64,000 nt of DNA from an uncultured Alphaproteobacteria bacterium (GTDB lineage Bacteria; Pseudomonadota; Alphaproteobacteria; Rhizobiales; Xanthobacteraceae), in contig CAVRIB010000004.1 of assembly GCA_963721135.1 (NCBI GenBank), positions 70,496 to 134,495 of the forward strand, read 5' to 3'. Shown one piece after another: positions 1 through 13,318 of this stretch. Both the position numbers and the translations under genes were made by a program. The notes under the pieces were generated by a model. It was not told the DNA's origin and made no database searches. It saw nothing but the letters and a program-made list of their open reading frames with translations. How positions within the stretch are numbered: the first letter of the stretch is position 1; every line of letters begins with the position of its first letter.

Positions 1-879
1 GCAGCGATCGCTGCGGCACGCGATGCAGCCGAGGCGGCATTGCGGGATTTGCAGACAGCTCAGGATCGCCTGGTGCAGACCGAAAAACTCGCTTCGCTCG
101 GCCAACTCGCCGCCGGCATCGCCCACGAGATCAAGAACCCGCTCAATTTCGTCAATAATTTCTCTGCACTCTCGGCCGAGCTGACCGACGAACTGAACGA
201 CGTGCTCAAGCCGGTCGCGCTCGACCGCAAGGTCCGGGGAGAAGTCGACGAATTGACCGGCTTGTTGAAAGACAATCTCGAAAAGGTGGTCCAGCACGGC
301 AAGCGCGCCGATTCCATCGTCAAGAACATGCTGCTGCATTCGCGCGAGGGTTCCGGCGAGCGACGGCCCGCCGATATCAACGCGCTGCTGGATGAAAGCC
401 TCAATCTCGCCTATCACGGCGCTCGCGCTGAAAAGGGCGAGTTCAATATCATCCTGCAGCGTGACTTCGATGCAGATGCGGGCACAATCGAACTATTTCC
501 GCAGGAAATCACCCGCGCGTTCCTCAATCTGATCTCGAACGGCGTCTATGCTGCGACCAGGCGCAAGACGGAGGATCAACAGCTTGGTTTTGAGCCAACC
601 CTCCGGGCAACCACCAAAAATCTCGGAAGCGCCGTGGAAATTCGCATTCGCGACAACGGCACCGGCATTCCGGCCGAGGTACAGGAAAAGATGTTCAACC
701 CGTTCTTTACGACCAAGCCAGCCGGTGAAGGAACCGGCCTTGGTCTCTCGATGACGCACGACATCATTGTGAAGCAACACGGCGGCAAAATCGACGTCGA
801 GACCGAGCCAGGCAATTTCACCGAGATCATTATCAAGTTGCCGCGAGCAACAATCCCGCACGACAAAGGTACAAATTGA
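1..879 (+). CDS. Sensor histidine kinase, C-terminal HisKA + HATPase part (5' truncated by window edge)
   Basis: Frame open from base 1; H-box AHEIKNPL, N-box NLISN, G1 DNGTGI, F-box FNPFFTTK, G2 GTGLGL. Confidence 0.95.
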   Translation, partial: AAIAAARDAAEAALRDLQTAQDRLVQTEKLASLGQLAAGIAHEIKNPLNFVNNFSALSAELTDELNDVLKPVALDRKVRGEVDELTGLLKDNLEKVVQHGKRADSIVKNMLLHSREGSGERRPADINALLDESLNLAYHGARAEKGEFNIILQRDFDADAGTIELFPQEITRAFLNLISNGVYAATRRKTEDQQLGFEPTLRATTKNLGSAVEIRIRDNGTGIPAEVQEKMFNPFFTTKPAGEGTGLGLSMTHDIIVKQHGGKIDVETEPGNFTEIIIKLPRATIPHDKGTN

Positions 880-1265
880 GTACCCGCATTCTCGTCGTCG
901 ATGACGAGCCCGATGTTGAAAGCATGTTCCGCCAGCATTTCCGGCGTGATCTTCGTTTGGGCCGGTTCATCATGGAATTTGCTCCATCGGCTCCGGCGGC
1001 AATTGAGCGCATCAGGCTTATCGCCGACCCGTCGCTGATCTTGATCCTGTCCGACATCAACATGCCCGGCATGAGCGGCCTCGAGATGCTACCGAAGGTG
1101 CGGGCTGAACGGCCGAACGTGCCAGTTATCATGATAACCGCCTATGGCGACGAGGATACCAAGCGGCAGGCTATCGCTCAGGGACCCGTTGGCCTGCTGA
1201 CCAAACCGATCGATTTCGTCTTGCTGCGCCAGGAGATCGATGCACGGCTTGATAAAGCAGCATAA
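876..1265 (+). CDS. Single-domain response regulator (receiver only)
   Basis: ILVVDDE, LILSDINMPGMSG (phospho-Asp), ITAY, LTKP; TTG start overlaps kinase stop. Confidence 0.93.
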   Translation: MSTRILVVDDEPDVESMFRQHFRRDLRLGRFIMEFAPSAPAAIERIRLIADPSLILILSDINMPGMSGLEMLPKVRAERPNVPVIMITAYGDEDTKRQAIAQGPVGLLTKPIDFVLLRQEIDARLDKAA

Positions 1266-1284
1266 CCGTCGAAATCTCTTCGAA

Positions 1285-1416
1285 TTTGCTGCAGTGCATG
1301 AGTCCGTTCGTGGCACGAAACGGACCTCCAGCGATGTCCGCTATCTGGTCGCTATCGGGGGAAAAGCAGACATGGGGTGGACGGTCCATTTCGGTAGCGA
1401 TTGACCCCAAGCGGAC
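1285..1416. repeat. Cluster of imperfect palindromes (GTCCG...CGGAC family), left copy
   Basis: tttgctgcagtgcatgagtccgttcgtggcacgaaacggac, then atgtccgct...agcagacat and ttgaccccaagcggac. Confidence 0.8.
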
Positions 1417-1502
1417 TTTTGATCCGCTGCGTCGCGACCTCTTCCCCTGCGTCGGCTTCACCGATTAGGATGGCTCTCTGTGCTGGAAGGCCGAGGGGAC
1501 CG

Positions 1503-2489
1503 ATGCGACGGCGCGAGTTCATCATTGGCGGAATGGCGGGAGCTTGGCCGCTGATTGTAGGGGCGCAACCAGCGGACCAAAGGCGGCTGGTCGGTGTGCT
1601 TATGGGGTCACGGCAGGATGACACCGTAAGCGAAGCGCATCTCACCACATTCCGCAACGGCCTTGCCGACTTGGGCTGGGTCGAAGGCCGCAACGTGCGT
1701 TTCGAGATCCTCCACGGAGCCGGCGACCGCGACCGGGTGCGGACAGGTGCGGTGGAGCTTGTAAAGCTCGCTCCGGACGTCATCCTCTCTTACGGTACCT
1801 CATCGACCGCTGCGCTGAAATCGGCCACGCAGTCGATCCCGATCGTGTTCGCTGTTGTCAACGACCCCGTCGCACAGGGGTACGTGCCGAATGTTGAGCA
1901 CCCCGGCGGCAATATCACCGGCTTCAGCTTCATCGATTATTCGATGATCGGCAAGGCGCTCGGCCTGTTCAAGCAGATCGCGCCCGCCGTGACGCGGATC
2001 GGCTTTCTGTTCAATCCCGACGACTATCCCTATTACGAGGTTTATCTGCGCTCGTTCAAGGAGCAGCGCGAGGCACTGGCGCTCGACGTGACGGCCATGC
2101 GCGCGCACAGCGACGCCGAGATTGACGCCGCGATCACGCAGCTGGCGGCGGTGCCGGGCGGCGGCCTGATCGCCCCGCCAAGCGCTTTCAACGCTGTGCA
2201 TCGCCACGAGATCATCACGCAGGCGCTGGCGCACGGACTCCCAGCCGTCGTTCCCTTTCGCGAGGCGGTCGCTGACGGCGGGCTGATGTGCTACGCACCG
2301 GACGAGACCGATATTTTTCGGCGTGCCGCCCCGTACGTCGATCGGATTCTCAAAGGCGCCAAGCCCGGCGATCTGCCGGTGCAGGCTCCGACCAAGTTTG
2401 ATTTCGTCATCAATCTCAGAACGGCAAAGCTGCTCGGCCTCAATGTGCCGCCTAACCTGCTTGCGATCGCCGACGAGGCGATCGAATAG
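1503..2489 (+). CDS. ABC transporter substrate-binding protein (ABC_sub_bind/TrpX-like), orphan
   Basis: MRRREFI N-terminus, LVKLAPDVIL, TQSIPIVF, PGGNITG, YVDRILKGAKPGDLPVQAPTKFDFVINLRTAKLLG. Confidence 0.92.
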   Translation: MRRREFIIGGMAGAWPLIVGAQPADQRRLVGVLMGSRQDDTVSEAHLTTFRNGLADLGWVEGRNVRFEILHGAGDRDRVRTGAVELVKLAPDVILSYGTSSTAALKSATQSIPIVFAVVNDPVAQGYVPNVEHPGGNITGFSFIDYSMIGKALGLFKQIAPAVTRIGFLFNPDDYPYYEVYLRSFKEQREALALDVTAMRAHSDAEIDAAITQLAAVPGGGLIAPPSAFNAVHRHEIITQALAHGLPAVVPFREAVADGGLMCYAPDETDIFRRAAPYVDRILKGAKPGDLPVQAPTKFDFVINLRTAKLLGLNVPPNLLAIADEAIE

Positions 2490-2496
2490 AGGTGTT

Positions 2497-2540
2497 TTTG
2501 CTGCAATGCATGAGTCCGGTTGTGGGCACAAAGCGGACAT
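2497..2540. repeat. Right copy of the palindromic repeat
   Basis: tttgctgcaatgcatgagtccggttgtgggcacaaagcggacat; direct repeat of 1285-1327. Confidence 0.8.
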
Positions 2541-2626
2541 GACTACGCGAACAAGTCCGTCCCGGCTTGCGTGAACGACAGCACCGGAGAGATGCAGCGT
2601 GTTCCAACCTGTGCGCGATGGCGGCT

Positions 2627-2833
2627 CTACGGGAGGCCCACTGTCCGTTCAGGATCGGCGGCGACGCGCTGGACGATGGCGTGCTCGCATTCAGGGCATT
2701 CGAGCGATCTAATCTCGAATCCCGGACTGCCCGGCGTGATGCGCGTCAACGCCATCTTGGCAAAACACTTCGAACAACGCGGGCGATCTATTGCCGAGGA
2801 TGAGACGCGTGGAGGCTTGCTAGGTGGAAACAT
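2627..2833 (-). CDS. Small zinc-ribbon-like protein (CxxC...CxxC)
   Basis: RPRCSKC...MALTRITPGSPGFEIRSLECPEC; 68 aa. Confidence 0.7.
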   Translation of the reverse strand: MFPPSKPPRVSSSAIDRPRCSKCFAKMALTRITPGSPGFEIRSLECPECEHAIVQRVAADPERTVGLP

Positions 2834-2917
2834 GTGTAAAGCGCACCGGTGATATTGGGATATGGCGCTGCAGTAAGACCATGGCCGGAAATCGATGTCG
2901 GTGCGGTACCCGACACA

Positions 2918-2931
2918 TTGCCCCAGATCAA
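2918..2931. promoter_or_regulatory. FNR/FixK2-type palindromic box
   Basis: TTGC-cccaga-TCAA fits TTG(A/C)-N6-(T/G)CAA. Confidence 0.55.
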
Positions 2932-2964
2932 CGAGACGAGTGATTTAATCCTTAGCGTTCATTA

Positions 2965-3048
2965 GAGCATTTGCCGAGCGGCACGGAGGGGTGTTGTTCC
3001 GGTGTTTGTGAGAGGCCCGGATACCTCATCCGGGCCTCGCTCTTTTTT
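2965..3048 (+). ncRNA. Candidate sRNA (~84 nt)
   Basis: -10 TAGCGT at 2953-2958, FNR-type box centred about 41 nt upstream of the inferred start, ends in an intrinsic terminator; no substantial ORF. Confidence 0.45.
3012..3048 (+). terminator. Intrinsic terminator
   Basis: Perfect 11-bp stem gaggcccggat/atccgggcctc followed by gctctttttt. Confidence 0.8.
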
Positions 3049-3297
3049 CAGCGACCAAGGAAACTGCCTCTTACCCCAAAGCGACGCTATGCTGAGCGAT
3101 CGAGCGTGGCCTCCGTGGGCGCGTCGCGAAGATGAAAACCAAACGGTTTCGCACAGTCGCGTGAGGCCGCCCGCCTCTACTGGTCGTCAACACCTTCTAA
3201 ATAACCCAACCGAGACGGTGGATATTGTGGGTACCTCCTAGAAAATATTTGACTAACCGCCATTTTAGAGCTGGTGGTGGCGTTCGGAGTTTACGAC

Positions 3298-3528
3298 ATG
3301 GCTGTTCGACCAAGCGATCTTGCAGAACGTATTTACAATCGGGTCGAACCGGGTGACGGGTTCATGCAGGAGACGCTTCGCCTGCCGGTTGAAGCGGCTC
3401 GTATTAGGGCTCGTGAGATTATCAATCAGTGTCCGCAGAGCGGTTACATGACGACTGTTGAGCATTGGCGGCAATTGCCCGATGGACAGATCGAATTCAT
3501 AACGCGGCGTCTGCGGACAGCAGATTGA
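3298..3528 (+). CDS. Small hypothetical protein
   Basis: GGAG RBS 8 nt before ATG; 76 aa ending VEHWRQLPDGQIEFITRRLRTAD. Confidence 0.7.
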   Translation: MAVRPSDLAERIYNRVEPGDGFMQETLRLPVEAARIRAREIINQCPQSGYMTTVEHWRQLPDGQIEFITRRLRTAD

Positions 3529-3533
3529 GGCCA

Positions 3534-3725
3534 ATGACCGGCGACCAATCCAGGCTCCTCAAGGTTGGCGACCGCGTTTGCTGGGGAGCCAAGACAACCG
3601 ATCTTGGTGCGGTTGTCAAAACGACTTGGAATGAAGTCACTATCGATTGGGACGACGGGCGCTCGACTTCAATCCAGCACAACGATATGGCGCAAGTCGA
3701 GCGGGTGCCGACGAAACTGATGTGA
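3534..3725 (+). CDS. Small SH3/KOW-like beta-barrel hypothetical protein
   Basis: GAGG RBS; LKVGDRVCW...G.V.....VTIDWDDG pattern; 63 aa. Confidence 0.7.
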   Translation: MTGDQSRLLKVGDRVCWGAKTTDLGAVVKTTWNEVTIDWDDGRSTSIQHNDMAQVERVPTKLM

Positions 3726-3828
3726 GGGCGTGGCACGTTGCGAAAAGAATAAATTGTTAACCCGCCGTCGATAGCGTATTTCGACGCGGGCTTCGCAACT
3801 CACACCGCGAATTTGGCTTGCAATACTT

Positions 3829-3860
3829 CCCGCCGGGGTGACCCGGCGGGTTTCTTTCTT
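3829..3860 (+). terminator. Intrinsic terminator
   Basis: Perfect 9-bp stem cccgccggg/cccggcggg, then tttctttctt. Confidence 0.8.
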
Positions 3861-3906
3861 GCGCAACTGGGGTTGTTTTGACTTTCTCTAGAGGCATATT
3901 TAGCCG

Positions 3907-4092
3907 ATGAAATATCTCGCCTTCGGCAGTACTGCCTTTTTCAGTGCTGCGCTCTTTGCTTTGGCTGTCGCCTATCTGGCCCATAGTGTGCTGGGTATCC
4001 CGCGCCATGCCATCCAGATTGACGCGTTGGGAATGGCTGCCTGTATCGCGGCATTCATTGGCGCGGCTGTGTTCGCCAAACGGCGGCCCTAG
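3907..4092 (+). CDS. Small two-TM membrane protein (61 aa)
   Basis: GAGG RBS; two hydrophobic stretches, basic C-terminus KRRP. Confidence 0.6.
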   Translation: MKYLAFGSTAFFSAALFALAVAYLAHSVLGIPRHAIQIDALGMAACIAAFIGAAVFAKRRP

Positions 4093-4164
4093 CATCGGTC
4101 GTCGGGCCGCGTTACCGATCGCGCGCCAGCTTCCGTCGTCTCCAATGAGACCCGACCGACGGCG

Positions 4165-4362
4165 TTAGGGCGCAGCTGCGGTAGGTGTTTTTCTATGCTT
4201 TTTGTGTAGCACTAAACCCAGCGATCGGGCCATTCGTCGCACGGATGCGGTTGGCCGACCGAGCAATTTTGCGATCTCCTCCGCGTTCGCTTTCGTCCTT
4301 GCACCGACTTCCAGGCGCTTCAGTTCCTGCTGCGACCAATTTTTTGGTGGGCGGGCCTTCAT
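4165..4362 (-). CDS. Small HTH protein (GcrA/Myb-like N-terminal pattern)
   Basis: KNWSQQELKRL...EEIAKLLGRPTASVRRMARSLGL; 65 aa. Confidence 0.6.
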   Translation of the reverse strand: MKARPPKNWSQQELKRLEVGARTKANAEEIAKLLGRPTASVRRMARSLGLVLHKKHRKTPTAAAP

Positions 4363-4538
4363 CTGTTTTTGCCTCAACCGACGGCCACACGGAACACAAG
4401 GATAGCGGGGCCATCCGTTACGACCTGCCGGCCGCGCGGTAGGGTGATCGGTTCGTCGAACCGTCGTTTTCAACCGCGATCAGCCGTCACGCAGCAGCCT
4501 TATCTTCCTCGTCGACACCGCGCGCACAAGCCTCTGCG

Positions 4539-5142
4539 TCAGAACGAGTCCCTGACCCTGTCCATCGCCGGGTGGCTTCTGTTCTTCACCTTGACCCAGT
4601 CGGGCGAGCGGCCGGCACTGTAGCGGCTCTCGCGGCGTTTCGAGACCATGCCTTCCAGCCCGAACTTGCAGGCCTGCTGTAACAGGTCGGGGCCGATCTC
4701 CCCCTGCTCGAAGTCGGAGACGAAGATGCCGTCCGGTCGCCGTGCCAGGAACCGCGCCAGGTTGTTCTTCCGCAGATGCAGGGGCAACCTGCGCAGGTCA
4801 TCGCCATCAAGCGCCAGGATGTCGAAAGGCATAGAGCTGGACCTCCTCGTCATGCCGGCGGCCATGCAGGCCGTTGAAGTCGGAGATGCCGTCGACGCCG
4901 AGCAGCATCGCCTCGCCATCGATCACGAACGAGGTTATCCGGTTCTTGAGCGCCGCCTCGACGATCAGCGGGTAGCGATCCGTCCAGAGGTGGCCGTTCC
5001 GGGAGAACAGCCGCACGCGCGTGCCCTCGCGCTCAACAATGAGACAGTAGCCGTCGTGCTTGATCTCATGAAGCCAACCCGGCCCGGCTGGAACCTTGGT
5101 TCCACGCGTCGGCAGGCACGGCTCAAATTGATTTTTCGGCAT
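4539..5142 (-). pseudogene. Short ATP-dependent DNA ligase (adenylation domain only), +1 frameshift at ~4825-4827
   Basis: Motifs EIKHDGY, VIDGE, LYAF/DIL (split by an extra base), GLEGMVSK, SPDWVKVK; ends without an OB domain. Confidence 0.85.
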
Positions 5143-5397
5143 GCCGGAAAGATAGGCTCGATCGGCCAAAATATCGAGAGCACGGCCCCGCCTTGGTGCA
5201 TATTTGGGGGCGACGGGGACCGTGCAGGTCGCCTCCTGGGGGGACGACGACCCATCAAGATAACGGCGCAATTAGTCGGCGTTCCCGGCCCAGATGAACA
5301 CATTACCGAGCGCGGGCCCGCTATCAGCCTCCAGGTCGCCAGTCCGGCGGCATGCGTTCGTGCCGATCGAAGCGCCAAGATCGGGCCATTCCTGGCA

Positions 5398-5595
5398 TCA
5401 ATGCCGCCGGCCGTCCTTATCGACCTCGGTGTTGAAACCTTTTGGCATTCGTGGCGAGGAACGGTCGTTGGTGCCATTGCACCGTGGGCACGGTGCCCCA
5501 GCGCCGCCGCAGGTGCATCGGTGCTCGCCTTCCCAAGGGCGGATTGGATGGTTCTCGCAGACCCAGCCGGAGTCCTCGCAGAGCGCGCACTTCAC
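5398..5595 (-). CDS. Small Cys-rich zinc-binding protein
   Basis: CALCEDSGWVCENHP...CTCGGAGAPCPRC; GTG start overlaps upstream stop (GTGA). Confidence 0.75.
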   Translation of the reverse strand: MKCALCEDSGWVCENHPIRPWEGEHRCTCGGAGAPCPRCNGTNDRSSPRMPKGFNTEVDKDGRRH

Positions 5596-5957
5596 GGGGT
5601 TGTTCCCGCAGCGCGCCAGTCTGGCGGCATCCGCTCGTGCCGATCGAAGCGGCGATACTTCTCGGCCGTCCATGCTTCCTGATCTCGCCACGCCTGAAAA
5701 TCCGCTTCGGTGCGCTTGGGCAGATATTCCCGCCATCCTGCGTCAAACGCCACGCGCGCTGCCTCAAAGCTTGAAGCGGTGCCGTAGCTCTGCTCGCCCG
5801 GATTGCTCCCCGGATAGAAGCCGCAATGCCACTCCCAGGGCTCGGATGTGTTGGCGACGCCCGATCGTTCCAAGATCAGGCCCACGCGCACGCCGGCATA
5901 GTGGACGTGCCACCGTTCGGGGCGATCGTTGACGCGCTTGCGGGTGAGGGCGGGCAT
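5592..5957 (-). CDS. Trp-rich hypothetical protein of the mini-ligase module
   Basis: WEWHCGFYPGSNPGE...TEADFQAWRDQEAWTAEKY; 121 aa, coupled to the Cys-rich gene. Confidence 0.75.
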   Translation of the reverse strand: MPALTRKRVNDRPERWHVHYAGVRVGLILERSGVANTSEPWEWHCGFYPGSNPGEQSYGTASSFEAARVAFDAGWREYLPKRTEADFQAWRDQEAWTAEKYRRFDRHERMPPDWRAAGTTP

Positions 5958-6063
5958 ACGCCATTGAAGCGCCGGCGAGGGCACGCCTGCAAGCCGCTAG
6001 GGATTGAGGCTCGACATCGTCGACCACCGACATAGGCGTGCGAAGCCGCACCATTTGTCTTTG

Positions 6064-6222
6064 TCATCTTGACGCTCGCGACCCGAGCCACAATCCCACG
6101 AAGGCGCCGACACCGCTGAGCAGCACTCCTGAATAGGAGAACATGCCGTCACCCCAGAGTTCGGGAATAAATCCACCGATCGTGGACCCAATAAAAATCC
6201 CTATCCAGATGGATGCTCGCAT
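6064..6222 (-). CDS. Small Gly-rich membrane protein (52 aa)
   Basis: IWIGIFIGSTIGGFIPELWG...LLSGVGAFVGLWLG. Confidence 0.65.
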   Translation of the reverse strand: MRASIWIGIFIGSTIGGFIPELWGDGMFSYSGVLLSGVGAFVGLWLGSRASR

Positions 6223-6345
6223 GGGTGCAAAATACCATAGCCAAAAGCACCGCGCGCGAAAGCCGCCCATGAGGGCTTGGCTAGCGTGTGCTTGGAACGT
6301 TCCATGAAGGACAATCTGTCCTAAGTTCACATGCTGCGAACTTTT

Positions 6346-6403
6346 CGGAACGGACGGGGAACTGCTTTAGCGCTTTCCCCAAGCGGGAAATTGTCAAACC
6401 GGC
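6346..6403. repeat. 58-bp direct repeat, copy 1
   Basis: About 52/58 identical to 6916-6973; internal ggggaa...ttcccc stem; TTGACA on the minus strand. Confidence 0.85.
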
Positions 6404-6462
6404 TGACTGGGGCGCGAAGGGCGCCGGTGCGGGCTTGGCCATTCGGCAAATCAGCGGACCGC

Positions 6463-6696
6463 TTAATCTTCCGGGAACAGCTTGTCGGTCGTTTTGTCCA
6501 AATGCCTCTTGGGGCTGGGATCTGGCAGATGTCCAACCAGCTCTCCGGAAAGCTTGTAAATGTTGCTGCCTTTGAGGTCGTAGAGCTTCTTTCCCTTCGG
6601 ATCGAAGATAGCCGGGCCAACGACGATCGCTACGAGAGTGCCACGACTATTGAATATATTGCCATCCACGACCGACCTCCTATCGAGGTACCCCAT
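6463..6696 (-). CDS. Small hypothetical protein with repeated short beta-hairpin units
   Basis: IFNSRGTLV / IFDPKGKKL / IYKLSGELVG periodicity; 77 aa. Confidence 0.6.
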   Translation of the reverse strand: MGYLDRRSVVDGNIFNSRGTLVAIVVGPAIFDPKGKKLYDLKGSNIYKLSGELVGHLPDPSPKRHLDKTTDKLFPED

Positions 6697-6868
6697 TATG
6701 GCAAAGGTTGCGCCTGTTGGGTGACGATAGCGAGACGAATCGCGCTCTCGGCTATTTCTCCCTTCACCTTCAGCCCCAGCTCGACCAGGCGGTGACGCCG
6801 GCGCAGTCGGTCGCGCATCGGGAGCCGACGGCGGCGGCGTCTCAGGGCCCGGATTCGCTTCTGCAATC

Positions 6869-6922
6869 TCACTTTTTTGTTTTCAATCCCAGCTCGACCA
6901 GGCGGCGGACGGCCTCGGAGCG
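6869..6922 (-). pseudogene. C-terminal remnant of a ribbon-helix-helix protein
   Basis: Reads RSEAVRRLVELGLKTKK*; in-frame TAG just upstream inside the 58-bp repeat; a second tail RLVELGLKVKGE at ~6752-6792. Confidence 0.55.
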
Positions 6923-6973
6923 GACGGGGAACTACTTTAGCACTTTCCCCAAGCGGCGAATTGTCAAATCGGC
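6916..6973. repeat. 58-bp direct repeat, copy 2
   Basis: See 6346-6403. Confidence 0.85.
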
Positions 6974-7440
6974 AAATCAGGAGCAGGCGGCTTCAATAAG
7001 TATGCGAATAGATGCGCGTGCGTGCGCGAAGGCCGGTCCCACCACGCAGCTAACCGAAGCAATGAACATGCTCAATCGGAACCGCATCACTTTCCTTTCG
7101 TCGCCGGTAGATCGACCCGGTCCTCACGGAATTCGGATTGGACCTTGGTCAAGCGACTTCGGCGCCGGGCGCGTCTTCGCCGGCGGGCCCGGTTCAGCCC
7201 CGGACGTGCTTCATTGCGTGCAATGAGCTTCTAAGAAATTGGCGGTAAATTGCGTTGAGGATGAAAACTAACATGATCGAACCCCACTGTTTGACCATCC
7301 CCCGTCTTTTAACGGATCTCCGTTTCTGGCCGGTTTCGAGCCGCTGGAAAATGGCTTCGTGCCGATCCCCAGAACGTTTCGCTGGGAACCAACGGCAATC
7401 AGAACCGGGATTGTCCTCTGATCGAATAGTGATAACCTTG

Positions 7441-7525
7441 TGCCGTCCTATCGCCTGACGTGGCGATGGGACAGTTCAACCCCTACTTTCACCCCCGTCC
7501 GGACCCCCTCCTGGGCGGGGGTTTT
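7441..7525 (+). ncRNA. Candidate two-hairpin sRNA with a C-rich anti-SD-like loop
   Basis: Hairpin 7445-7472; terminator-like stem 7491-7522 with loop ggaccccctcct and a short T tail. Confidence 0.4.
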
Positions 7526-7647
7526 GCATATCCGGGCGGGCAACGGCTGGCGTCTCATGTTCGGCGGCGGGCCGCGTCCTTCTTAACTTGGCGTTAACCC
7601 TGGCGAAGTGAAGCTCGGCCAATGATGCGAGCCAAGGGCGCTGACCA

Positions 7648-7881
7648 ATGGCTGAGGCCTCCGGATGGGACGAGTTGACCAGGTTTGAGCAGCGCGTGCT
7701 GATCAAGCTGTTCGGCGGTGGAACGGTCCGAAAAGAAAACCCCGCGGTCGTTGACGAACTACGGGCTCGGGGCTTCATCGACAAGAACAACGAGCTCGCG
7801 ATGCCGGGATTGTTCGTTCTCACGCTCGCGATGCGCCGCCAGCAGAAGGACGCGCTTGTGCGGCTCGGTCTCGCGGCGTAG
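7648..7881 (+). CDS. Small hypothetical protein (possible winged-helix)
   Basis: WDELTRFEQRVLIKL...VVDELRARGFID; 77 aa. Confidence 0.6.
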   Translation: MAEASGWDELTRFEQRVLIKLFGGGTVRKENPAVVDELRARGFIDKNNELAMPGLFVLTLAMRRQQKDALVRLGLAA

Positions 7882-8010
7882 CCGTCCATTCATGGTACGC
7901 TGGCTAGCCCTGCGCTGGCGCCGAGCGGCCGGGACAGCAAGCCCGCAACAGCCGGACTTACCAGCGGCCTTCTTAGAGTCATGGGGAGGCCGTTTGCTTT
8001 CGTGGGGGGA

Positions 8011-8259
8011 TCAGATCCTGGCCAACTGACCGGAATGCTCATAAGGATGCTTGTTGCTCAGCTCGAGATCAACGTAGCCGCTGTCGTCAATCCACTCATG
8101 AGGGCAATACCGAAGCTGCCCGCCTATCGAAAGCCCGTCTCTCCGGATCGCTTCTGGCTTACCGACACGGCCGGACCAAATGTTATCTCCCGGTCGGATA
8201 TTGAAGCGCATGGCGTCGAAAACTGCGGTATCGTTCCGAACTTCGGGGTTGTTCGCCAT
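8011..8259 (-). CDS. Hypothetical protein
   Basis: Protein-like C-terminal part of the 8011-8529 ORF (YCPHEWIDDSGYVDLEL); start chosen at ATG 8259. Confidence 0.45.
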   Translation of the reverse strand: MANNPEVRNDTAVFDAMRFNIRPGDNIWSGRVGKPEAIRRDGLSIGGQLRYCPHEWIDDSGYVDLELSNKHPYEHSGQLARI

Positions 8260-8463
8260 GAAAATCAGCCCTGCGGTCGACCGTACATCGCCCCGGTGCA
8301 ACGACGTCAGGCCCGCGAGAACGACTTGCATGCGCGGCAGGTTGCCTGCCAGGCAGGCAGCTTCAAGTTCTTCGTTCAATCGCCTGCGGACGGCGAAGCG
8401 TGTCGGGCTTATTATCAGATCCCTATTTGTTCGAATGGGTGGACGTCCCATGATACACGACTG

Positions 8464-8483
8464 TGTCCCAAGATTTGTCCCAA
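8464..8483. promoter_or_regulatory. Putative tyrosine-integrase arm-type sites
   Basis: TGTCCCAA direct repeat twice with 12-bp period, ~130 bp inside the att core. Confidence 0.5.
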
Positions 8484-8611
8484 AGGCCGCCAGAACGGCG
8501 TGGACGAAGAAAGATAACGGCGAACGCAATAAGGCGAGGCGTAGGCAATTCGGCTTGTTAATTCAGACGAATTGTCACGCGCGCGGACCGTGCGAAACGA
8601 GTGCGCGCGTA

Positions 8612-8656
8612 CTCCAAAACCGGGGGTCGCAGGTTCGAGCCCTGCCACTCCTGCCA
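8612..8656 (+). other. attR: 3' half of tRNA-Trp(CCA), not an intact tRNA
   Basis: ctCCAaa anticodon loop, T-arm ggttcgagcc, acceptor 3' strand and CCA; sequence upstream does not form the 5' half. Confidence 0.88.
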
Positions 8657-8723
8657 TTTAGATCAATAGATTAGGTTGCCATCCTCCCGAACACCTTGAG
8701 AATCGCGGTGCTCGTTCGACGGG

Positions 8724-9563
8724 TCAGCGATACGGCGACTTCGCCGGTAGCATATCAAGCGTCTCCCGGATGAAAACAGCCGGAATAATGATGCCGAGAG
8801 ATAGGTCCTTGTCCTTGTAGACGCCCGAATTGGCCTGAGCCGTGACCAGGCCGGCGAGAAATTGAATTGTCTCGCCCAAGTGGCTTCCCCCGGCGTAGTC
8901 GCGGTTTCGATCGACAAAGTAGACCGGACCGCCGCTGTTTCCCGGAAGGATGCGAAAATCGAGAAGCCAGTTCCTGGCTTCCTTCGAGGGAACGAGCGGA
9001 TAAGAGGCAAGCTTTCCGCTGCGGAGGATGGGATAGCCATATTGGCCGGCGGCAAACAGCGGATAGCCGAGGCAGAGCAATTCATCGCCCGGGTGAATTT
9101 CGAATTTCTTCAAGTCGCCGTCCTCGATCAACAGCCCGGCAGGGAGCGGTCTTATCTTCGCGAATGAAGCCGGCATTCTCATGTAAAGGGCCGCCACGTC
9201 GACCGAGGGGTGTTTGACGTAGAGCGGCTTGCCATTTTGGCGGATCGGGAACTCGTAAGGTTGCTCGCTGTACGTTCCGTTCTCGTTTCTTGAGCGGTAC
9301 ATCAATGTCGCGCGGTCGCCGGAGATGTCGTCGAGGACGTGGGCGGCCGTAATCAGAACATGCGCACTGCTGTCGCCGATCGGCTTTTCCATGATGAATG
9401 CAGTGCCGCTCGCCGTTTCTCCCGAAGTCTTTGCGCCGGGTCCCAACAACTGAAACGTCGTCTCCATCAACTGTGTGTTGATTTCGAATTCCTCGTCCTC
9501 AGCGCGGGAACCGGTCGCCATGCTCGCCACGATCAGGGTTGCCCAGATCAATTGCTTCAACAT
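8724..9563 (-). CDS. Secreted trypsin-like serine protease (no PDZ)
   Basis: Signal peptide; triad motifs LITAAHV, VDVAAL, PGNSGGP; GGAG RBS. Confidence 0.88.
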   Translation of the reverse strand: MLKQLIWATLIVASMATGSRAEDEEFEINTQLMETTFQLLGPGAKTSGETASGTAFIMEKPIGDSSAHVLITAAHVLDDISGDRATLMYRSRNENGTYSEQPYEFPIRQNGKPLYVKHPSVDVAALYMRMPASFAKIRPLPAGLLIEDGDLKKFEIHPGDELLCLGYPLFAAGQYGYPILRSGKLASYPLVPSKEARNWLLDFRILPGNSGGPVYFVDRNRDYAGGSHLGETIQFLAGLVTAQANSGVYKDKDLSLGIIIPAVFIRETLDMLPAKSPYR

Positions 9564-9850
9564 CGCGCGTCTCCGTGGCTCTGCCACTGGTTGTGTCCAG
9601 AAGCCGGCGCGCGGTTCATCAAAGCTGCAAGAGCGGTTGGCCGAAGGCCAGTTCAGTGCTCGGATCGCCAAAATGACCCCCTCTATCCCGCTGATTTGAC
9701 GGCGATATTGTTGGCGCCGCGCGGTCTTCGCCGGCGCGCGGATACCGATGGATCAACGCATGGCCGCACCGCTGCCGGCCGCTAGGCGGCGTGGCGCCAA
9801 GCTGATAGCGTTTTCATCTCGCATCGACTTTCAGCATCGGGGACAAGACC

Positions 9851-11269
9851 ATGGACAATCGCAGCGACATCTGGCGGGGCGTTGACGCGATCACGCCGCG
9901 GTTCATCGCGTTGAGCGACAGGGTCTGGGCGATGCCCGAGCTTTGCTACACCGAGGCGCGCTCCGCCGCCGAACATCTCGCCGAGCTCCGCCATCAGGGT
10001 TTCCGCATCACCGAGAATGCCGCCGGCATTCCCACCGCCTTGATGGGCGAATGGGGCGAGGGCGGCCCGGTCATCGCGTTCCTCGGCGAATACGACGCGC
10101 TGCCCGGTCTCAGCCAGGAGGCCGGTGTCGCCGAGCCTCGCCCGCTCGAGACCGGCGGTCATGGCCATGGCTGCGGCCACAATCTGCTCGGCTCGGCCGC
10201 GCTGCTCGCCGCCACGTCGCTGAAGGATTGGCTCGCCGCCCACAGGGTCAAGGGACGCGTGCGCTATTACGGCTGCCCCGCCGAGGAAGGCGGCGCTGCG
10301 AAAGCCTTCATGGTGCGCTCCGGTGCCTTCGAGGACGCCGACATCGCCATCACCTGGCACCCGAGCAGTTTTTGGGAAGTGACGGTGACGCCCTCGCTCG
10401 CCAATACGCGCGCGGATTTCATCTTCACCGGGCGCACCTCGCATGCCGCGGCCTCGCCGCATCTCGGCCGCAGCGCGCTCGATGCGGTCGAGCTGATGAA
10501 TGTCGGCGTGAACTACATGCGCGAGCACATGCCGAGCGACGCCCGCGTCCACTATGCCCTGCTCGACACCGGCGGCATCGCGCCGAACGTGGTGCAGGCT
10601 CATGCCCGCGTGCGCTATTCGATCCGGGCGCGCGACCTGCCCGGCATGAATGAGCTCGTGGGACGCGTCCACAAGATCGCGCAAGGCGCAGCCCTGATGA
10701 CCGAAACCAAAGTGGAGATGCGGATCATCTCCGCCGTCTCCAATCTCTTGCCCAATACCCCGCTCGAGCAGGCGCTCCACCGCGTCATGGAGGAACTCGG
10801 CCCGCCGCATTTCGATGACACGGACAAGGATTTCGCCGCAAAGATCCGGTCCACCCTTACCGAGCAAGACATCGCCTCGGTCTATCGCGCCATCGGGATG
10901 GAACCGACCGACAAGCCGCTGGCCGATTTCCTCGTGCCAATGGACGCCAAGCGCAACCCCCAGATCGGCTCGACCGATGTCGGCGACGTGAGCTGGGTGG
11001 TGCCGACCGTCCAGGTCCATTCCCCGACGGTTGCGATCGGCACCCCGTTCCACACCTGGCAGGTGGTGGCGCAGGGCAAGAGCCCGGCCGCCCACAAGGC
11101 CATGGTGCAGGCCGCCAAGGCCATGGCCGGCCTCGGCGTCAAGGCGCTGCTGGAACCGGACCTGATCGCCGCCGCCAAGGCCGACCTCAAGAAGCGCACC
11201 GCCCGCACGCCCTATGTCAGCCCCTTGCCGGCAAATGTTGCGCTGCCGCTGGATATGTCGTTGACGTGA
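9851..11269 (+). CDS. M20 family amidohydrolase (AbgB-like)
   Basis: LGEYDALPG, GHGCGHNLLG, GCPAEEGG, ITWHP, GSTDVGDVSW. Confidence 0.92.
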   Translation: MDNRSDIWRGVDAITPRFIALSDRVWAMPELCYTEARSAAEHLAELRHQGFRITENAAGIPTALMGEWGEGGPVIAFLGEYDALPGLSQEAGVAEPRPLETGGHGHGCGHNLLGSAALLAATSLKDWLAAHRVKGRVRYYGCPAEEGGAAKAFMVRSGAFEDADIAITWHPSSFWEVTVTPSLANTRADFIFTGRTSHAAASPHLGRSALDAVELMNVGVNYMREHMPSDARVHYALLDTGGIAPNVVQAHARVRYSIRARDLPGMNELVGRVHKIAQGAALMTETKVEMRIISAVSNLLPNTPLEQALHRVMEELGPPHFDDTDKDFAAKIRSTLTEQDIASVYRAIGMEPTDKPLADFLVPMDAKRNPQIGSTDVGDVSWVVPTVQVHSPTVAIGTPFHTWQVVAQGKSPAAHKAMVQAAKAMAGLGVKALLEPDLIAAAKADLKKRTARTPYVSPLPANVALPLDMSLT

Positions 11270-11527
11270 TCTTGACCTGAGCCGGCGAACAAATTTTTGG
11301 CAAGCTGGGGCGCGCTGGAGCCCGCTTTGGCCGACGATACGGCCGGATTGCCGAACCCGTGTGCGCCGGGGCGGCCGGTTGCCCAAGCGACAGCCAGAAA
11401 ACCTTCCGCGTCATCGGTAAGAAGAATTGACGCGCGGGGCGTTCGGTGTGCCATCTTCTTTCCCGGGAAATTCGGCGCGGCCGCGGGTAGCGGCCACCCA
11501 TCCACCTGAGAACCAGAGGAGGCGAGG

Positions 11528-13318
11528 ATGCTGGACAAAGAACTGCGAATGATGATCGACCGGGTGAAGGACGGCCGCATGAACCGCCGCGCCTTCATTC
11601 AGCGCATGATCGGTCTCGGCCTGAGCGCGCCCATGGCGACACAGATTCTCGCCATCGGCGGCGTCGCCATGGCGCAGAGCCCGTCGCCATACAAACCGAC
11701 CAAGCGCGGCGGCGGCGGCCCGCTGAAGCTGTTGTGGTGGCAGTCGCCGACCCTGCTCAACCCGCATTTTGCCACCGGCACCAAGGATCAGGACGCCTCG
11801 CGCCTGTTCTATGAGCCGCTGGCAAGCTGGGACGTGGACGGCAATCTCAACCCGATCCTGGCGGCCGAAATCCCGTCGGTCCAGAACGGCGGCCTTGCCG
11901 CCGACGGCAAGTCCGTCACCTGGAAGCTCAAGCCCGGCGTCAAATGGCACGACGGCAAACCCTTCACCGCCGACGACCTCGTGTTCACGGTGGACTACGT
12001 CAACGATATTGCCACGGCGGCGGTGAGCATCGCCGTTTACCGCGACATCAAGGTCGAGAAGGTCGATGACCACACCGTCCGCATCCTGTTCAACAGCCCG
12101 ACGCCGTTCTGGGCCAATGCTTTCGTCGGCGGTTACGGCTGCATCATCCCGAAACACCTGTTTGCCGACTACAAGGGCGCGAAATCCCGCGAGGCCCCGA
12201 GCAACCTGGCGCCGGTCGGCACCGGTCCCTACAAGTTCGTCGAGTTCAAGCCGGGCGATCTCGTTCGTGGCGCGATCAACGCCGACTACCACATGTCCAA
12301 CCGTCCCTATTTCGACACCGTCGAAATGAAGGGCGGCGGCGATGCGGTCTCGGCCGCGCGCGCGGTGATCCAGACCGGCGAATATGACTATGCCTGGAAC
12401 ATGCAGGTGGAAGACGAAGTGCTGCTGCGCCTCGAAAACGGCGGCAAGGGCAAGACCCTCTATGCGACCGGCGGCGATATCGAGTTCATCGCGCTCAACA
12501 GCACCGACCCCAATCTCGAGGTCGACGGCGAACGCTCCAGCATGAAAACCAAGCACCCGCTGTTTTCAGATCCCGCGGTGCGCAAGGCGCTGTCCCTGCT
12601 GGTCGATCGCGACGCTATCGTGAAGCACATCTACGGCCGGGCCGGGCTGACGACGGCCAATTACCTCAATGGCCCGCCGTCCGCTGTTTCCAAGAACACG
12701 AGCTGGGAATTCAGCATCGAGAAGGCGATCAAGCTCCTCGACGACGCCGGCTGGAAGCCGGGCCCCGACGGTATCCGCGCCAAGGGCGACAAGAAGTTGA
12801 AGCTGCTCTACCAGACCTCGATCAACGCGCCGCGCCAGAAGACGCAGGCCATCGTCAAGCAGGCCTGCCAGAAGGCCGGCATCGAGGTCGAGCTGAAATC
12901 GGTCGTGGCCTCGGTGTTCTTCTCGTCCGACGAAGCCAACCCGGATACCTACTCGAAGTTCTATTCCGACCTCGAGGAATTCCAGATCCCGATGACCCAG
13001 CCGGACCCGTCGCTGCAGATGAAGCGCTACATTTCGGCAAACGTCGCCACCAAGGCGAACAAATGGCAGGGGCAGAACTTCGCGCGTTGGGTCAACAAGG
13101 ACTATGACAAGGTGATCGAGGAGGCGGAAACCGAGACCGATCTGGTGAAGCGCGCCGCGCTCTATATCAAGTCCAACGATATGCTCATCGAGGATACGGT
13201 GTTCGTTCCGGTGCTGCACCGGCTGAAGGTGAGCGCGATTTCGAAGAGCCTGAAACCGGTGATCAGCGGCTGGGCCAACGACACCGACAATATCCAGGAC
13301 TGGTATCGGGAGGTCTGA
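11528..13318 (+). CDS. Peptide/nickel-type ABC transporter substrate-binding protein
   Basis: Tat-like RRAFI signal; family 5 motifs LKPGVKWHDGKPFTADD, PVGTGPYKF. Confidence 0.93.
   Translation: MLDKELRMMIDRVKDGRMNRRAFIQRMIGLGLSAPMATQILAIGGVAMAQSPSPYKPTKRGGGGPLKLLWWQSPTLLNPHFATGTKDQDASRLFYEPLASWDVDGNLNPILAAEIPSVQNGGLAADGKSVTWKLKPGVKWHDGKPFTADDLVFTVDYVNDIATAAVSIAVYRDIKVEKVDDHTVRILFNSPTPFWANAFVGGYGCIIPKHLFADYKGAKSREAPSNLAPVGTGPYKFVEFKPGDLVRGAINADYHMSNRPYFDTVEMKGGGDAVSAARAVIQTGEYDYAWNMQVEDEVLLRLENGGKGKTLYATGGDIEFIALNSTDPNLEVDGERSSMKTKHPLFSDPAVRKALSLLVDRDAIVKHIYGRAGLTTANYLNGPPSAVSKNTSWEFSIEKAIKLLDDAGWKPGPDGIRAKGDKKLKLLYQTSINAPRQKTQAIVKQACQKAGIEVELKSVVASVFFSSDEANPDTYSKFYSDLEEFQIPMTQPDPSLQMKRYISANVATKANKWQGQNFARWVNKDYDKVIEEAETETDLVKRAALYIKSNDMLIEDTVFVPVLHRLKVSAISKSLKPVISGWANDTDNIQDWYREV

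Follow-up and report, generated by a model that had tools for sequence, protein, structure and literature searches.

Direct repeats around an orphan PF04392 gene probably belong to a dispersed family of mosaic 3' trailers

The window analyzed here is a stretch of 64,000 nucleotides (nt) from a Bradyrhizobium-like genome of the Xanthobacteraceae (C4:70496-134495, where C4 is one of the 29 contigs of a 91%-complete, 6.55-Mb assembly). Two copies of a direct repeat lie near its left end, the first behind a gene encoding a receiver-only response regulator and the second behind an orphan gene encoding a substrate-binding protein (SBP) of the PF04392 family. Both repeats probably belong, at a rough probability of 0.6, to a dispersed family of mosaic extragenic repeats that follow genes as co-oriented 3' trailers and resemble repetitive extragenic palindromic (REP) sequences, the REP clusters of E. 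coli known as bacterial interspersed mosaic elements (BIMEs) and the Rhizobium-specific intergenic mosaic elements (RIMEs). What is unusual in the family is a near-invariant, non-palindromic head, together with an association with PF04392 genes, behind whose stop codons it stands at a fixed distance.

Alignment of the copies in this genome shows that the complete element is about 135 nt long and consists of a head (H) followed by three modules, A, B and C. The consensus of H is TTTGCTGCRGYGCATGAGTC, that of A is ...TGGCAC...CGGAC, that of B is GATGTCCGC...GGGGGAAAGCGGACATGG and that of C is ...CATTTCGGTAGCGATTGACCC-N5-CGGAC, and a headless variant of the family reads CGACTTCCG..TGGCAC.... When the whole genome is searched with nhmmer, a profile made from the initial matches detects 22 copies with a head and about 50 further stretches that match the hairpin part only. 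The modules are combined as H+A+B+C, H+A, A+B+C or headless forms, subfamilies are present, and copies with different A modules agree almost completely in modules B and C. The family, which resides mainly on lower-GC contigs rich in insertion sequences (ISs), is extragenic and dispersed and combines its modules variously in the manner of BIME- and RIME-type mosaics.

In the window, TTTGCTGCARTGCATGAGTC is present twice, starting at 1285 and 2497, and a repeat search identifies 1285-1313 and 2497-2525 as a direct repeat of 29 nt with 90% identity. TTGCTGCARTGCATGAGTCCG matches only at 1286-1306 and 2498-2518 in the 64 kb, both on the plus strand, against a chance expectation of 0.01. Copy 1 (1285-1417) is complete, and copy 2 (2497-2540) consists of H and A, modules B and C being missing or degenerate past 2540. 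The TTTGC of copy 1 stands 19 nt past the stop codon of the receiver gene and that of copy 2 stands 7 nt past the SBP stop codon, in agreement with an initial annotation of this DNA, which had described a direct repeat trailing both genes. Counted to TTGCTGC, the spacing of copy 2 is 8 nt and falls inside the family range of 8-10 nt.

Every copy in the genome runs in the same direction as the gene that lies 5' of it. There are 28 PF04392 open reading frames (ORFs), of which 24 have an intact 3' end; eight of these are followed by H+A and eight by a headless module A, always a few bases from the stop codon (16/24). The PF04392 genes without a repeat comprise three of the 24 that stand in tandem and are coupled through ATGA, and five others, four of which are on the higher-GC contigs C2, C3 and C28. 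Three further headed copies lie behind decayed SBP 3' ends. The initial annotation had proposed checking whether copies trail the stop codons of variable genes; their placement is indeed non-random, trails stops genome-wide and is linked to PF04392, but the preceding genes are not variable: most of them are SBP genes, and the others come from one kinase/receiver family and one TPR-protein family. Tandem PF04392 genes at C5:20251-24472 and C4:61107-62851 are joined by ...ATCGAATGA..., in which the stop codon overlaps the next ATG (translational coupling), and this overlap may explain the near-universal GAA codon for the last glutamate.

The head is also found three times behind a paralogous kinase, with a shared spacer, and twice behind a paralogous receiver gene. 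A spacer common to the three kinase-plus-trailer units shows that the gene was copied along with its trailer. The window segment 926-1407, which covers the receiver gene and the element to its tail, matches C19:87702-88184 at 73%, and the next genes there are an ORF that by eye resembles an outer-membrane protein and an antitoxin-like gene, with no SBP gene. The existence of this receiver-plus-repeat unit without an SBP gene therefore indicates that copy 1 is a trailer of the receiver gene itself. Copy 2, which is truncated, belongs to the SBP gene as its trailer, and so the SBP gene is flanked by repeats because two gene-plus-trailer units adjoin.

The same placement is seen in other genomes. 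An SBP-type stop (...IE) precedes the head in 55 of 113 usable foreign copies, 32 of them with a gap of 9 nt, 11 with 8 nt and 5 with 10 nt, and a combination of hidden Markov model (HMM) searches with remnant detection on 116 foreign copies places 41 behind intact SBP genes and 18 behind clear remnants. Other genes that recur before the head are a kinase ending in ...PRTSQR and a TPR protein ending in ...EGLRKAGLPE, and a particular stop-to-head spacing goes with each of the kinase, receiver and TPR-protein contexts. Since an SBP gene lies downstream of the head in just 9 of 122 foreign loci, the element is a trailer and not a leader.

When up to one mismatch is allowed, the 19-nt head is present in 30 of the 151 Xanthobacteraceae genomes searched and in 18 of 62 genera, against 0 for the reversed control, and the exact head stands at no fewer than 119 loci, in named records of Bradyrhizobium, Afipia, Pseudolabrys and Rhodoplanes and in Xanthobacteraceae/Hyphomicrobiales records of metagenome-assembled genomes. 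The 5' part, (GATGCTGT)TTGCTGCRGYGCATGAGTC-N7-TGGCAC, is common to many Xanthobacteraceae. An alignment of 81 copies shows conservation of (GATGCTGT)TTGCTGCGGTGCATGAGTC, followed by about 7 variable bases and TGGC(A/C)C; in alignment A1, TGGCAC reaches a conservation of at least 90%, and the tail anchor TTGACCC-N5-CGGAC recurs in other genera. GAGTC, the invariant end of the head (window 1300-1304 and 2512-2516), fits GANTC, the site that CcrM methylates in Alphaproteobacteria; GACTT stands at this place in the headless variant.

The conservation does not extend to the fold. Folded as single-stranded DNA, module A forms a bulged hairpin in both window copies (-8.5 kcal/mol with a z score of -2.8 in copy 1, -7.1 kcal/mol with a z score of -3.3 in copy 2), as the initial annotation had proposed. 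The two additional related units that it had placed at the left site exist as modules B and C, but when folded alone they do no better than shuffles (z -1.0 and -0.04). Across the family, RNAalifold gives -2.7 kcal/mol and no covarying pair, the stem of the window copies has 60.2% of its cells paired, compared with 59.7% in column shuffles, 168 of 500 shuffles doing as well, and 79 foreign copies folded singly have a mean z of -0.23, with 11% below -2. Thus, the family conserves primary sequence, not the hairpin. Since the hairpin is neither covarying nor unusually stable, a structure-read site of the attC type does not define the family.

The SBP paralogues that carry a trailer show 29-45% amino-acid identity to the window SBP, and the headed ones, with 5 changes for 5 rows, are spread over a paralogue tree whose terminal branches measure 0.5-2 substitutions per site. 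By eye, the trailers within the genome look much more alike than the SBP genes that they follow, and modules B and C are near-identical behind unrelated genes in this genome and differ between genera. Neutral co-duplication does not account for this combination of diverged paralogues with similar trailers, and of near-identical modules B and C behind unrelated genes. Either the head may be under purifying selection with the rest homogenized by conversion, or the element may be re-seeded within genomes. Searches for an orthologous locus found none in about 425 genomes of the genus (window 300-3000 against 40 relatives, 24 of them of the same genus, and window 1430-3300 against 400 genus genomes), and a second headed SBP locus, C15:454800-455600, likewise has no orthologous locus in 400 genus genomes. 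The best SBP match in these DNA searches has 67% nucleotide identity.

An alternative that we regard as unlikely is that the repeat is a non-autonomous mobile element similar to a MITE (a miniature transposable element with inverted repeats) or a REPIN. A selfish H-A-B-C unit would then insert a few bases past the ...GTGATCGAATAG with which PF04392 genes end, as well as into a small number of other targets, and the head would be the end recognized by a transposase acting in trans. The likeness of genome copies behind ancient paralogues, the scatter of headed SBP genes on the tree and the uniformity of modules B and C within this genome, together with their difference between genomes, are consistent with such spread, and the copy at C4:176359 keeps just GAATAA of the SBP end before its trailer. 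The conserved segment of spacer and head also starts with a semi-conserved GATGCTGT, the same 8 nt with which the left end of a resident IS110-family element begins, but this match may be chance or a relic. The aligned copies argue against the alternative in that they show neither terminal inverted repeats between head and tail nor flanking target duplications, as would be expected of a MITE, and no filled and empty pair has been found for the element itself. The shared spacer of the kinase-plus-trailer units, which points to copying together with the gene, argues against it as well. Moreover, a search for Y1/HUH transposases (RAYT, PF01797) with positive controls finds none in the 91%-complete genome.

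Mobile elements do insert into the modules. A 1.4-kb IS110-family element with the ends GATGCTGTGGACGGCTCC...GGAGCCGTCCACACAT and a 343-aa DEDD transposase (Pfam DEDD_Tnp_IS110 and Transposase_20) is present in five copies, at approximately C11:96628-98040, C15:456507-457900, C15:469858-471250, C4:19790-21180 and C20:150828-152230. All five are inserted at the same point, ...CCGGTNTT/GGCAC (TT/GGCAC, the slash marking the insertion), of a headed or headless module A, and related IS elements occupy the same point of module A in other genomes (foreign loci L080, L082, L096, L146 and L148). A 221-bp MITE with the inverted ends GATACTGTTGAAAAAGTC at C5:26270-26490 splits module C between ATTG and ACCC; about five more copies of 221-235 bp are present (C14:4222, C15:457967, C19:50780, C24:496848 and C4:60800), and similar MITE ends (GATTTTGTTGCAAAAGTCG) follow TGGC(A/C) of module A in other genomes. 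The B. erythrophlei loci L101 and L102 resemble a filled and an empty paralogous MITE site. At foreign copies followed by GTGCAGG... or GTGAAGG..., a group II intron was considered and rejected, since Rfam intron models match elsewhere in one locus and not at the junction. That the modules are preferred landing sites of IS110-family elements and of a MITE helps to explain why the accessory regions are so scrambled.

It is quite improbable that the repeat is a plain relic, that is, an ancestral SBP 3' flank copied along in gene duplications and neither functional nor mobile. A stop spacing characteristic of each gene family and the duplication of kinase-plus-trailer and receiver-plus-trailer as units would agree with such descent, but among paralogues as divergent as those described above, neutral descent could not hold a 19-nt head near-invariant across 18 genera.

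Several recent duplications have one breakpoint in a repeat or at its edge, where different left flanks are joined to identical right flanks. The breakpoints lie at the last SBP codons (C10:35523 and C4:176359, 4.35 kb at 94%), inside module A (C5:13062 / C5:27383 and C4:63100 / C10:80446) and in the module C tail (C14 and C17). The idea of the initial annotation therefore holds in so far as modules coincide with duplication breakpoints and the repeats are sites at which DNA is joined, but these breakpoints occupy several positions and define no single crossover point. They are explained by IS and MITE insertions together with homologous exchange between repeats. At C5:13041-13952, an H+A+B copy and a partial A+B+C copy flank a carboxymuconolactone-decarboxylase (CMD)-family gene of 134 aa, and the 891-bp CMD block has an inverted copy with 100% identity at C5:26493-27383, which cuts the start of a gene beginning MSTHRLAAILVAD directly behind a TPR-protein gene.

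The genome has 14 integrase-family matches. The PF00589 match nearest to the window is a 216-aa tyrosine recombinase (C4:63160-63810), which lies about 6.8 kb upstream of where the window starts and adjoins a decayed, frameshifted SBP gene whose head is degenerate. Of 122 foreign head loci, only 4 have a relative of this recombinase within 2.5 kb, and since the recombinase shows no linkage to the head in other genomes it was rejected as a partner of the repeat. An 866-bp repeat (C4:63100-63966, about 6.5 kb upstream of the window, and C10:79581-80446) carries the recombinase and has its start within module A (...CTCTTGGCAC). At C24:488086-492490, three consecutive integrase-family ORFs look like a recombinase-in-trio element.

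A cassette system, in which units of an SBP gene and an attC-like folded single-strand site are moved by some tyrosine or HUH recombinase, is highly improbable: copies that trail stop codons in the orientation of the gene, bulged hairpins in the two window copies, duplications that break at repeat edges and a CMD-family gene standing between two partial copies in a block duplicated elsewhere would all suit it, but the hairpin is unconserved, the preceding genes are dominated by PF04392, the breakpoints fall at three or more positions, Y1_Tnp is absent from the genome, the integrase-family ORF nearest the window is distant and its relatives are rare at head loci, no array of unrelated genes stands beside an integrase, and copy 1 is accounted for as the receiver gene's own trailer. 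The hairpin-based cassette system that the initial annotation had suggested could drive the expansion of this SBP family is thus not supported, and its search target, a co-occurring tyrosine or HUH recombinase, does not accompany the repeats.

The family of mosaic 3' trailers is therefore the reading that we prefer. Selection would maintain the head as a site recognized by its sequence, and this recognition would most likely take place on the 3' end of the mRNA; the mRNA level is suggested because the head is strand-specific and keeps a constant distance from the stop codon that is particular to each gene family. The copies would be homogenized or re-seeded within the genome by gene conversion or by some trans-acting activity. 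More tentatively, the head and TGGCAC could together represent an undescribed cis-element, and this possibility, taken jointly over its two forms, is one that we regard as rather unlikely. It could be a site in the 3' untranslated region (3' UTR) for an RNA-binding protein or a small RNA that co-regulates PF04392 SBPs, GAF/PAS kinases and TPR signalling proteins across the Xanthobacteraceae, or it could be the recognized end of a new non-autonomous element that homes within 8-10 nt of PF04392 stops.

Several points weigh against the preferred reading. An RNA-level role of the head is pure inference. The copy number is low for a REP family, being in the tens and not the hundreds, and Rfam has no entry matching the repeats: the covariance models of Rfam 15 yield no match at the gathering score anywhere in the window, nor any in 1230-2620 at E<=5. 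Genome scans for Y1 and integrase families have not identified a mobilizing enzyme for the repeats, and the homogeneity of modules B and C within the genome could equally reflect recent transposition of a non-autonomous element. Finally, the foreign set of heads was ascertained by the motif itself, so that the degree of conservation is partly by construction.

To our knowledge, no role has been assigned to the dozens of orphan PF04392 binding proteins of Bradyrhizobium and its relatives. A near-invariant non-coding motif behind PF04392, kinase/receiver and TPR genes in at least 18 genera marks these genes as a group, and the head motif is a handle for finding what regulates or rearranges them.

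Other readings of the head were considered and rejected. A small ORF (MLFAAVHES..., MSA..GGKADM..DPKRT) has common indels and no Pfam match, and its frame is not kept because the gap from the stop codon is 8, 9 or 10 nt. By inspection, the sequence does not suit a sigma-54 promoter, since it has TGGCAC but no GC at -12, the TTGC-N6-GCAT of a supposed FNR/FixK box is asymmetric, and an NtrC or NifA site does not fit. Neither window copy contains a sigma-70-like promoter or an intrinsic terminator, and a genome-wide 11-mer search for a trans RNA complementary to the head gave noise only. A search for published papers that contain the head motif or deal with PF04392 expansion in Bradyrhizobium found none.

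The features of the locus are listed in Table 1. The full kinase ORF starts at about C4:68357, upstream of the window, and its N-terminal part, judged by eye, has three GAF-like repeats and a PAS-like region before HisKA and HATPase_c and appears cytoplasmic. The kinase-receiver pair at window 1-1265 is a paralogue, with 76-78% nucleotide identity, of a conserved kinase-receiver-receiver operon in the same genome (C3:44401-45372), and the second receiver gene of this operon is replaced in the window by the repeat and the SBP gene. The window SBP begins with MRRREFI... and ends with ...ADEAIE, and its score of 141 bits against PF04392 (ABC_sub_bind), compared with a Pfam gathering cut-off of 25.9, places it in this family. 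Exact-protein look-ups of the SBP and the receiver returned no record, although the chosen start codons may differ from recorded ones. Upstream of the SBP gene there are kinase and receiver genes only, and Pfam finds no permease or ATPase domain in the six ORFs between 2630 and 5929, where its single match is a DNA-ligase domain; the remark of the initial annotation that the SBP lacks an adjacent permease or ATPase is consistent with this. The G+C content is 55-64% across window 1-10000 and 66-67% at 10000-12000, and ARAGORN finds no intact tRNA gene in window 1-12000.

Table 1. Genes and repeat modules at the left end of the window (window positions)
Feature	Position	Strand	Details
Sensor histidine kinase, 3' part	1..879	+	Pfam HisKA and HATPase_c; apparently cytoplasmic
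Receiver-only response regulator, 129 aa	876..1265	+	Pfam Response_reg, E 2e-21; stop 1263-1265
Head H, copy 1: TTTGCTGCAGTGCATGAGTC	1285..1304	+	19 nt past receiver stop
Module A, copy 1: GTCCGTTCGTG-G-CACGAAACGGAC	1302..1325	+	bulged hairpin holding the conserved TGGCAC
Module B, copy 1: GCGATGTCCGC...GGGGGAAAAGCAGACATGG	1331..1375	+	inverted ends ATGTCCGC / GCAGACAT; aligned with about 10 other genome copies
Module C (tail), copy 1: GGTCCATTTCGGTAGCGATTGACCCCAAGCGGAC	1380..1417	+	alignment of genome copies
Orphan PF04392 (ABC_sub_bind) SBP, 328 aa	1503..2489	+	Pfam E 5.5e-41; stop 2487-2489
Head H, copy 2: TTTGCTGCAATGCATGAGTC	2497..2516	+	7 nt past SBP stop (8 nt to TTGCTGC)
Module A, copy 2: GTCCGGTTGTGGGCACAAAGCGGAC	2514..2538	+	nhmmer match stops at model position 50

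Among known systems, integron attC sites contain an inverse core, RYYYAAC, and a core, GTTRRRY, and the bottom strand folds into a conserved hairpin with extrahelical bases although its sequence varies; beside them stand intI, attI and a promoter, with an array of unrelated cassettes behind. The repeats resemble attC sites in trailing a gene, in being co-oriented with it and in forming an imperfect hairpin in some copies, but they lack R''/R' cores, a conserved fold, an intI/attI/Pc platform and diverse preceding genes. The initial annotation had already stated that the window copies lack a GTTRRRY core, and inspection of both confirms this: GTTCGTG and GTTGTGG (1285-1417 and 2497-2540) do not fit it, and head and tail are not complementary. 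The pattern of conservation is the reverse of that of attC, since the sequence is conserved and the structure is not. Nor do the repeats form an integrase array, since the nearest PF00589 match is outside the window and the preceding genes are mostly PF04392.

The REP/RAYT systems (REPINs) and the GTAG/CGTC-tagged REPs (Di Nocera et al. 2013, PMC3733652) are closer in that they are short and extragenic, have a conserved 5' tag followed by a potential stem-loop and serve as targets of IS110/IS1111-type elements. The window family differs from them in having no GTAG or CGTC tag, an unconserved stem-loop, tens of copies and a genome without Y1; where a REP or REPIN family is defined by a 20-40 bp palindrome, a GTAG/CGTC tag and more than 100 copies, this family has about 22 headed and about 50 partial ones. 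Br-REP1 and Br-REP2 of Bradyrhizobium japonicum USDA 110, with the consensus sequences CCGGAATCTCGAGATTCCGG and CGAGATTCCGGGTTCGGCTCTT-CGAGCCGCCCCGGAATGA, lie in the 3' UTRs of Bradyrhizobium genes and are shared with related genera, and their copy number and flanking palindromes vary by strain (Hahn et al. 2016, PMC5082802). The 3' UTR location is common to Br-REPs and the window element, but the consensus sequences, compared by eye, are unrelated, and the window element is rarer and specific to gene families. BIMEs and RIMEs are alike in being extragenic, 100-200 nt long and built from a few variously combined modules, some of them palindromic, and in lying often just 3' of genes, in tens of dispersed copies that are hot spots of IS insertion and rearrangement; the likeness to RIMEs noted here is one of described features. 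What sets the window family apart from BIMEs and RIMEs is that its best-conserved part is a non-palindromic 19-nt head with TGGCAC, found behind few gene families, chiefly PF04392, at a fixed distance from the stop codon.

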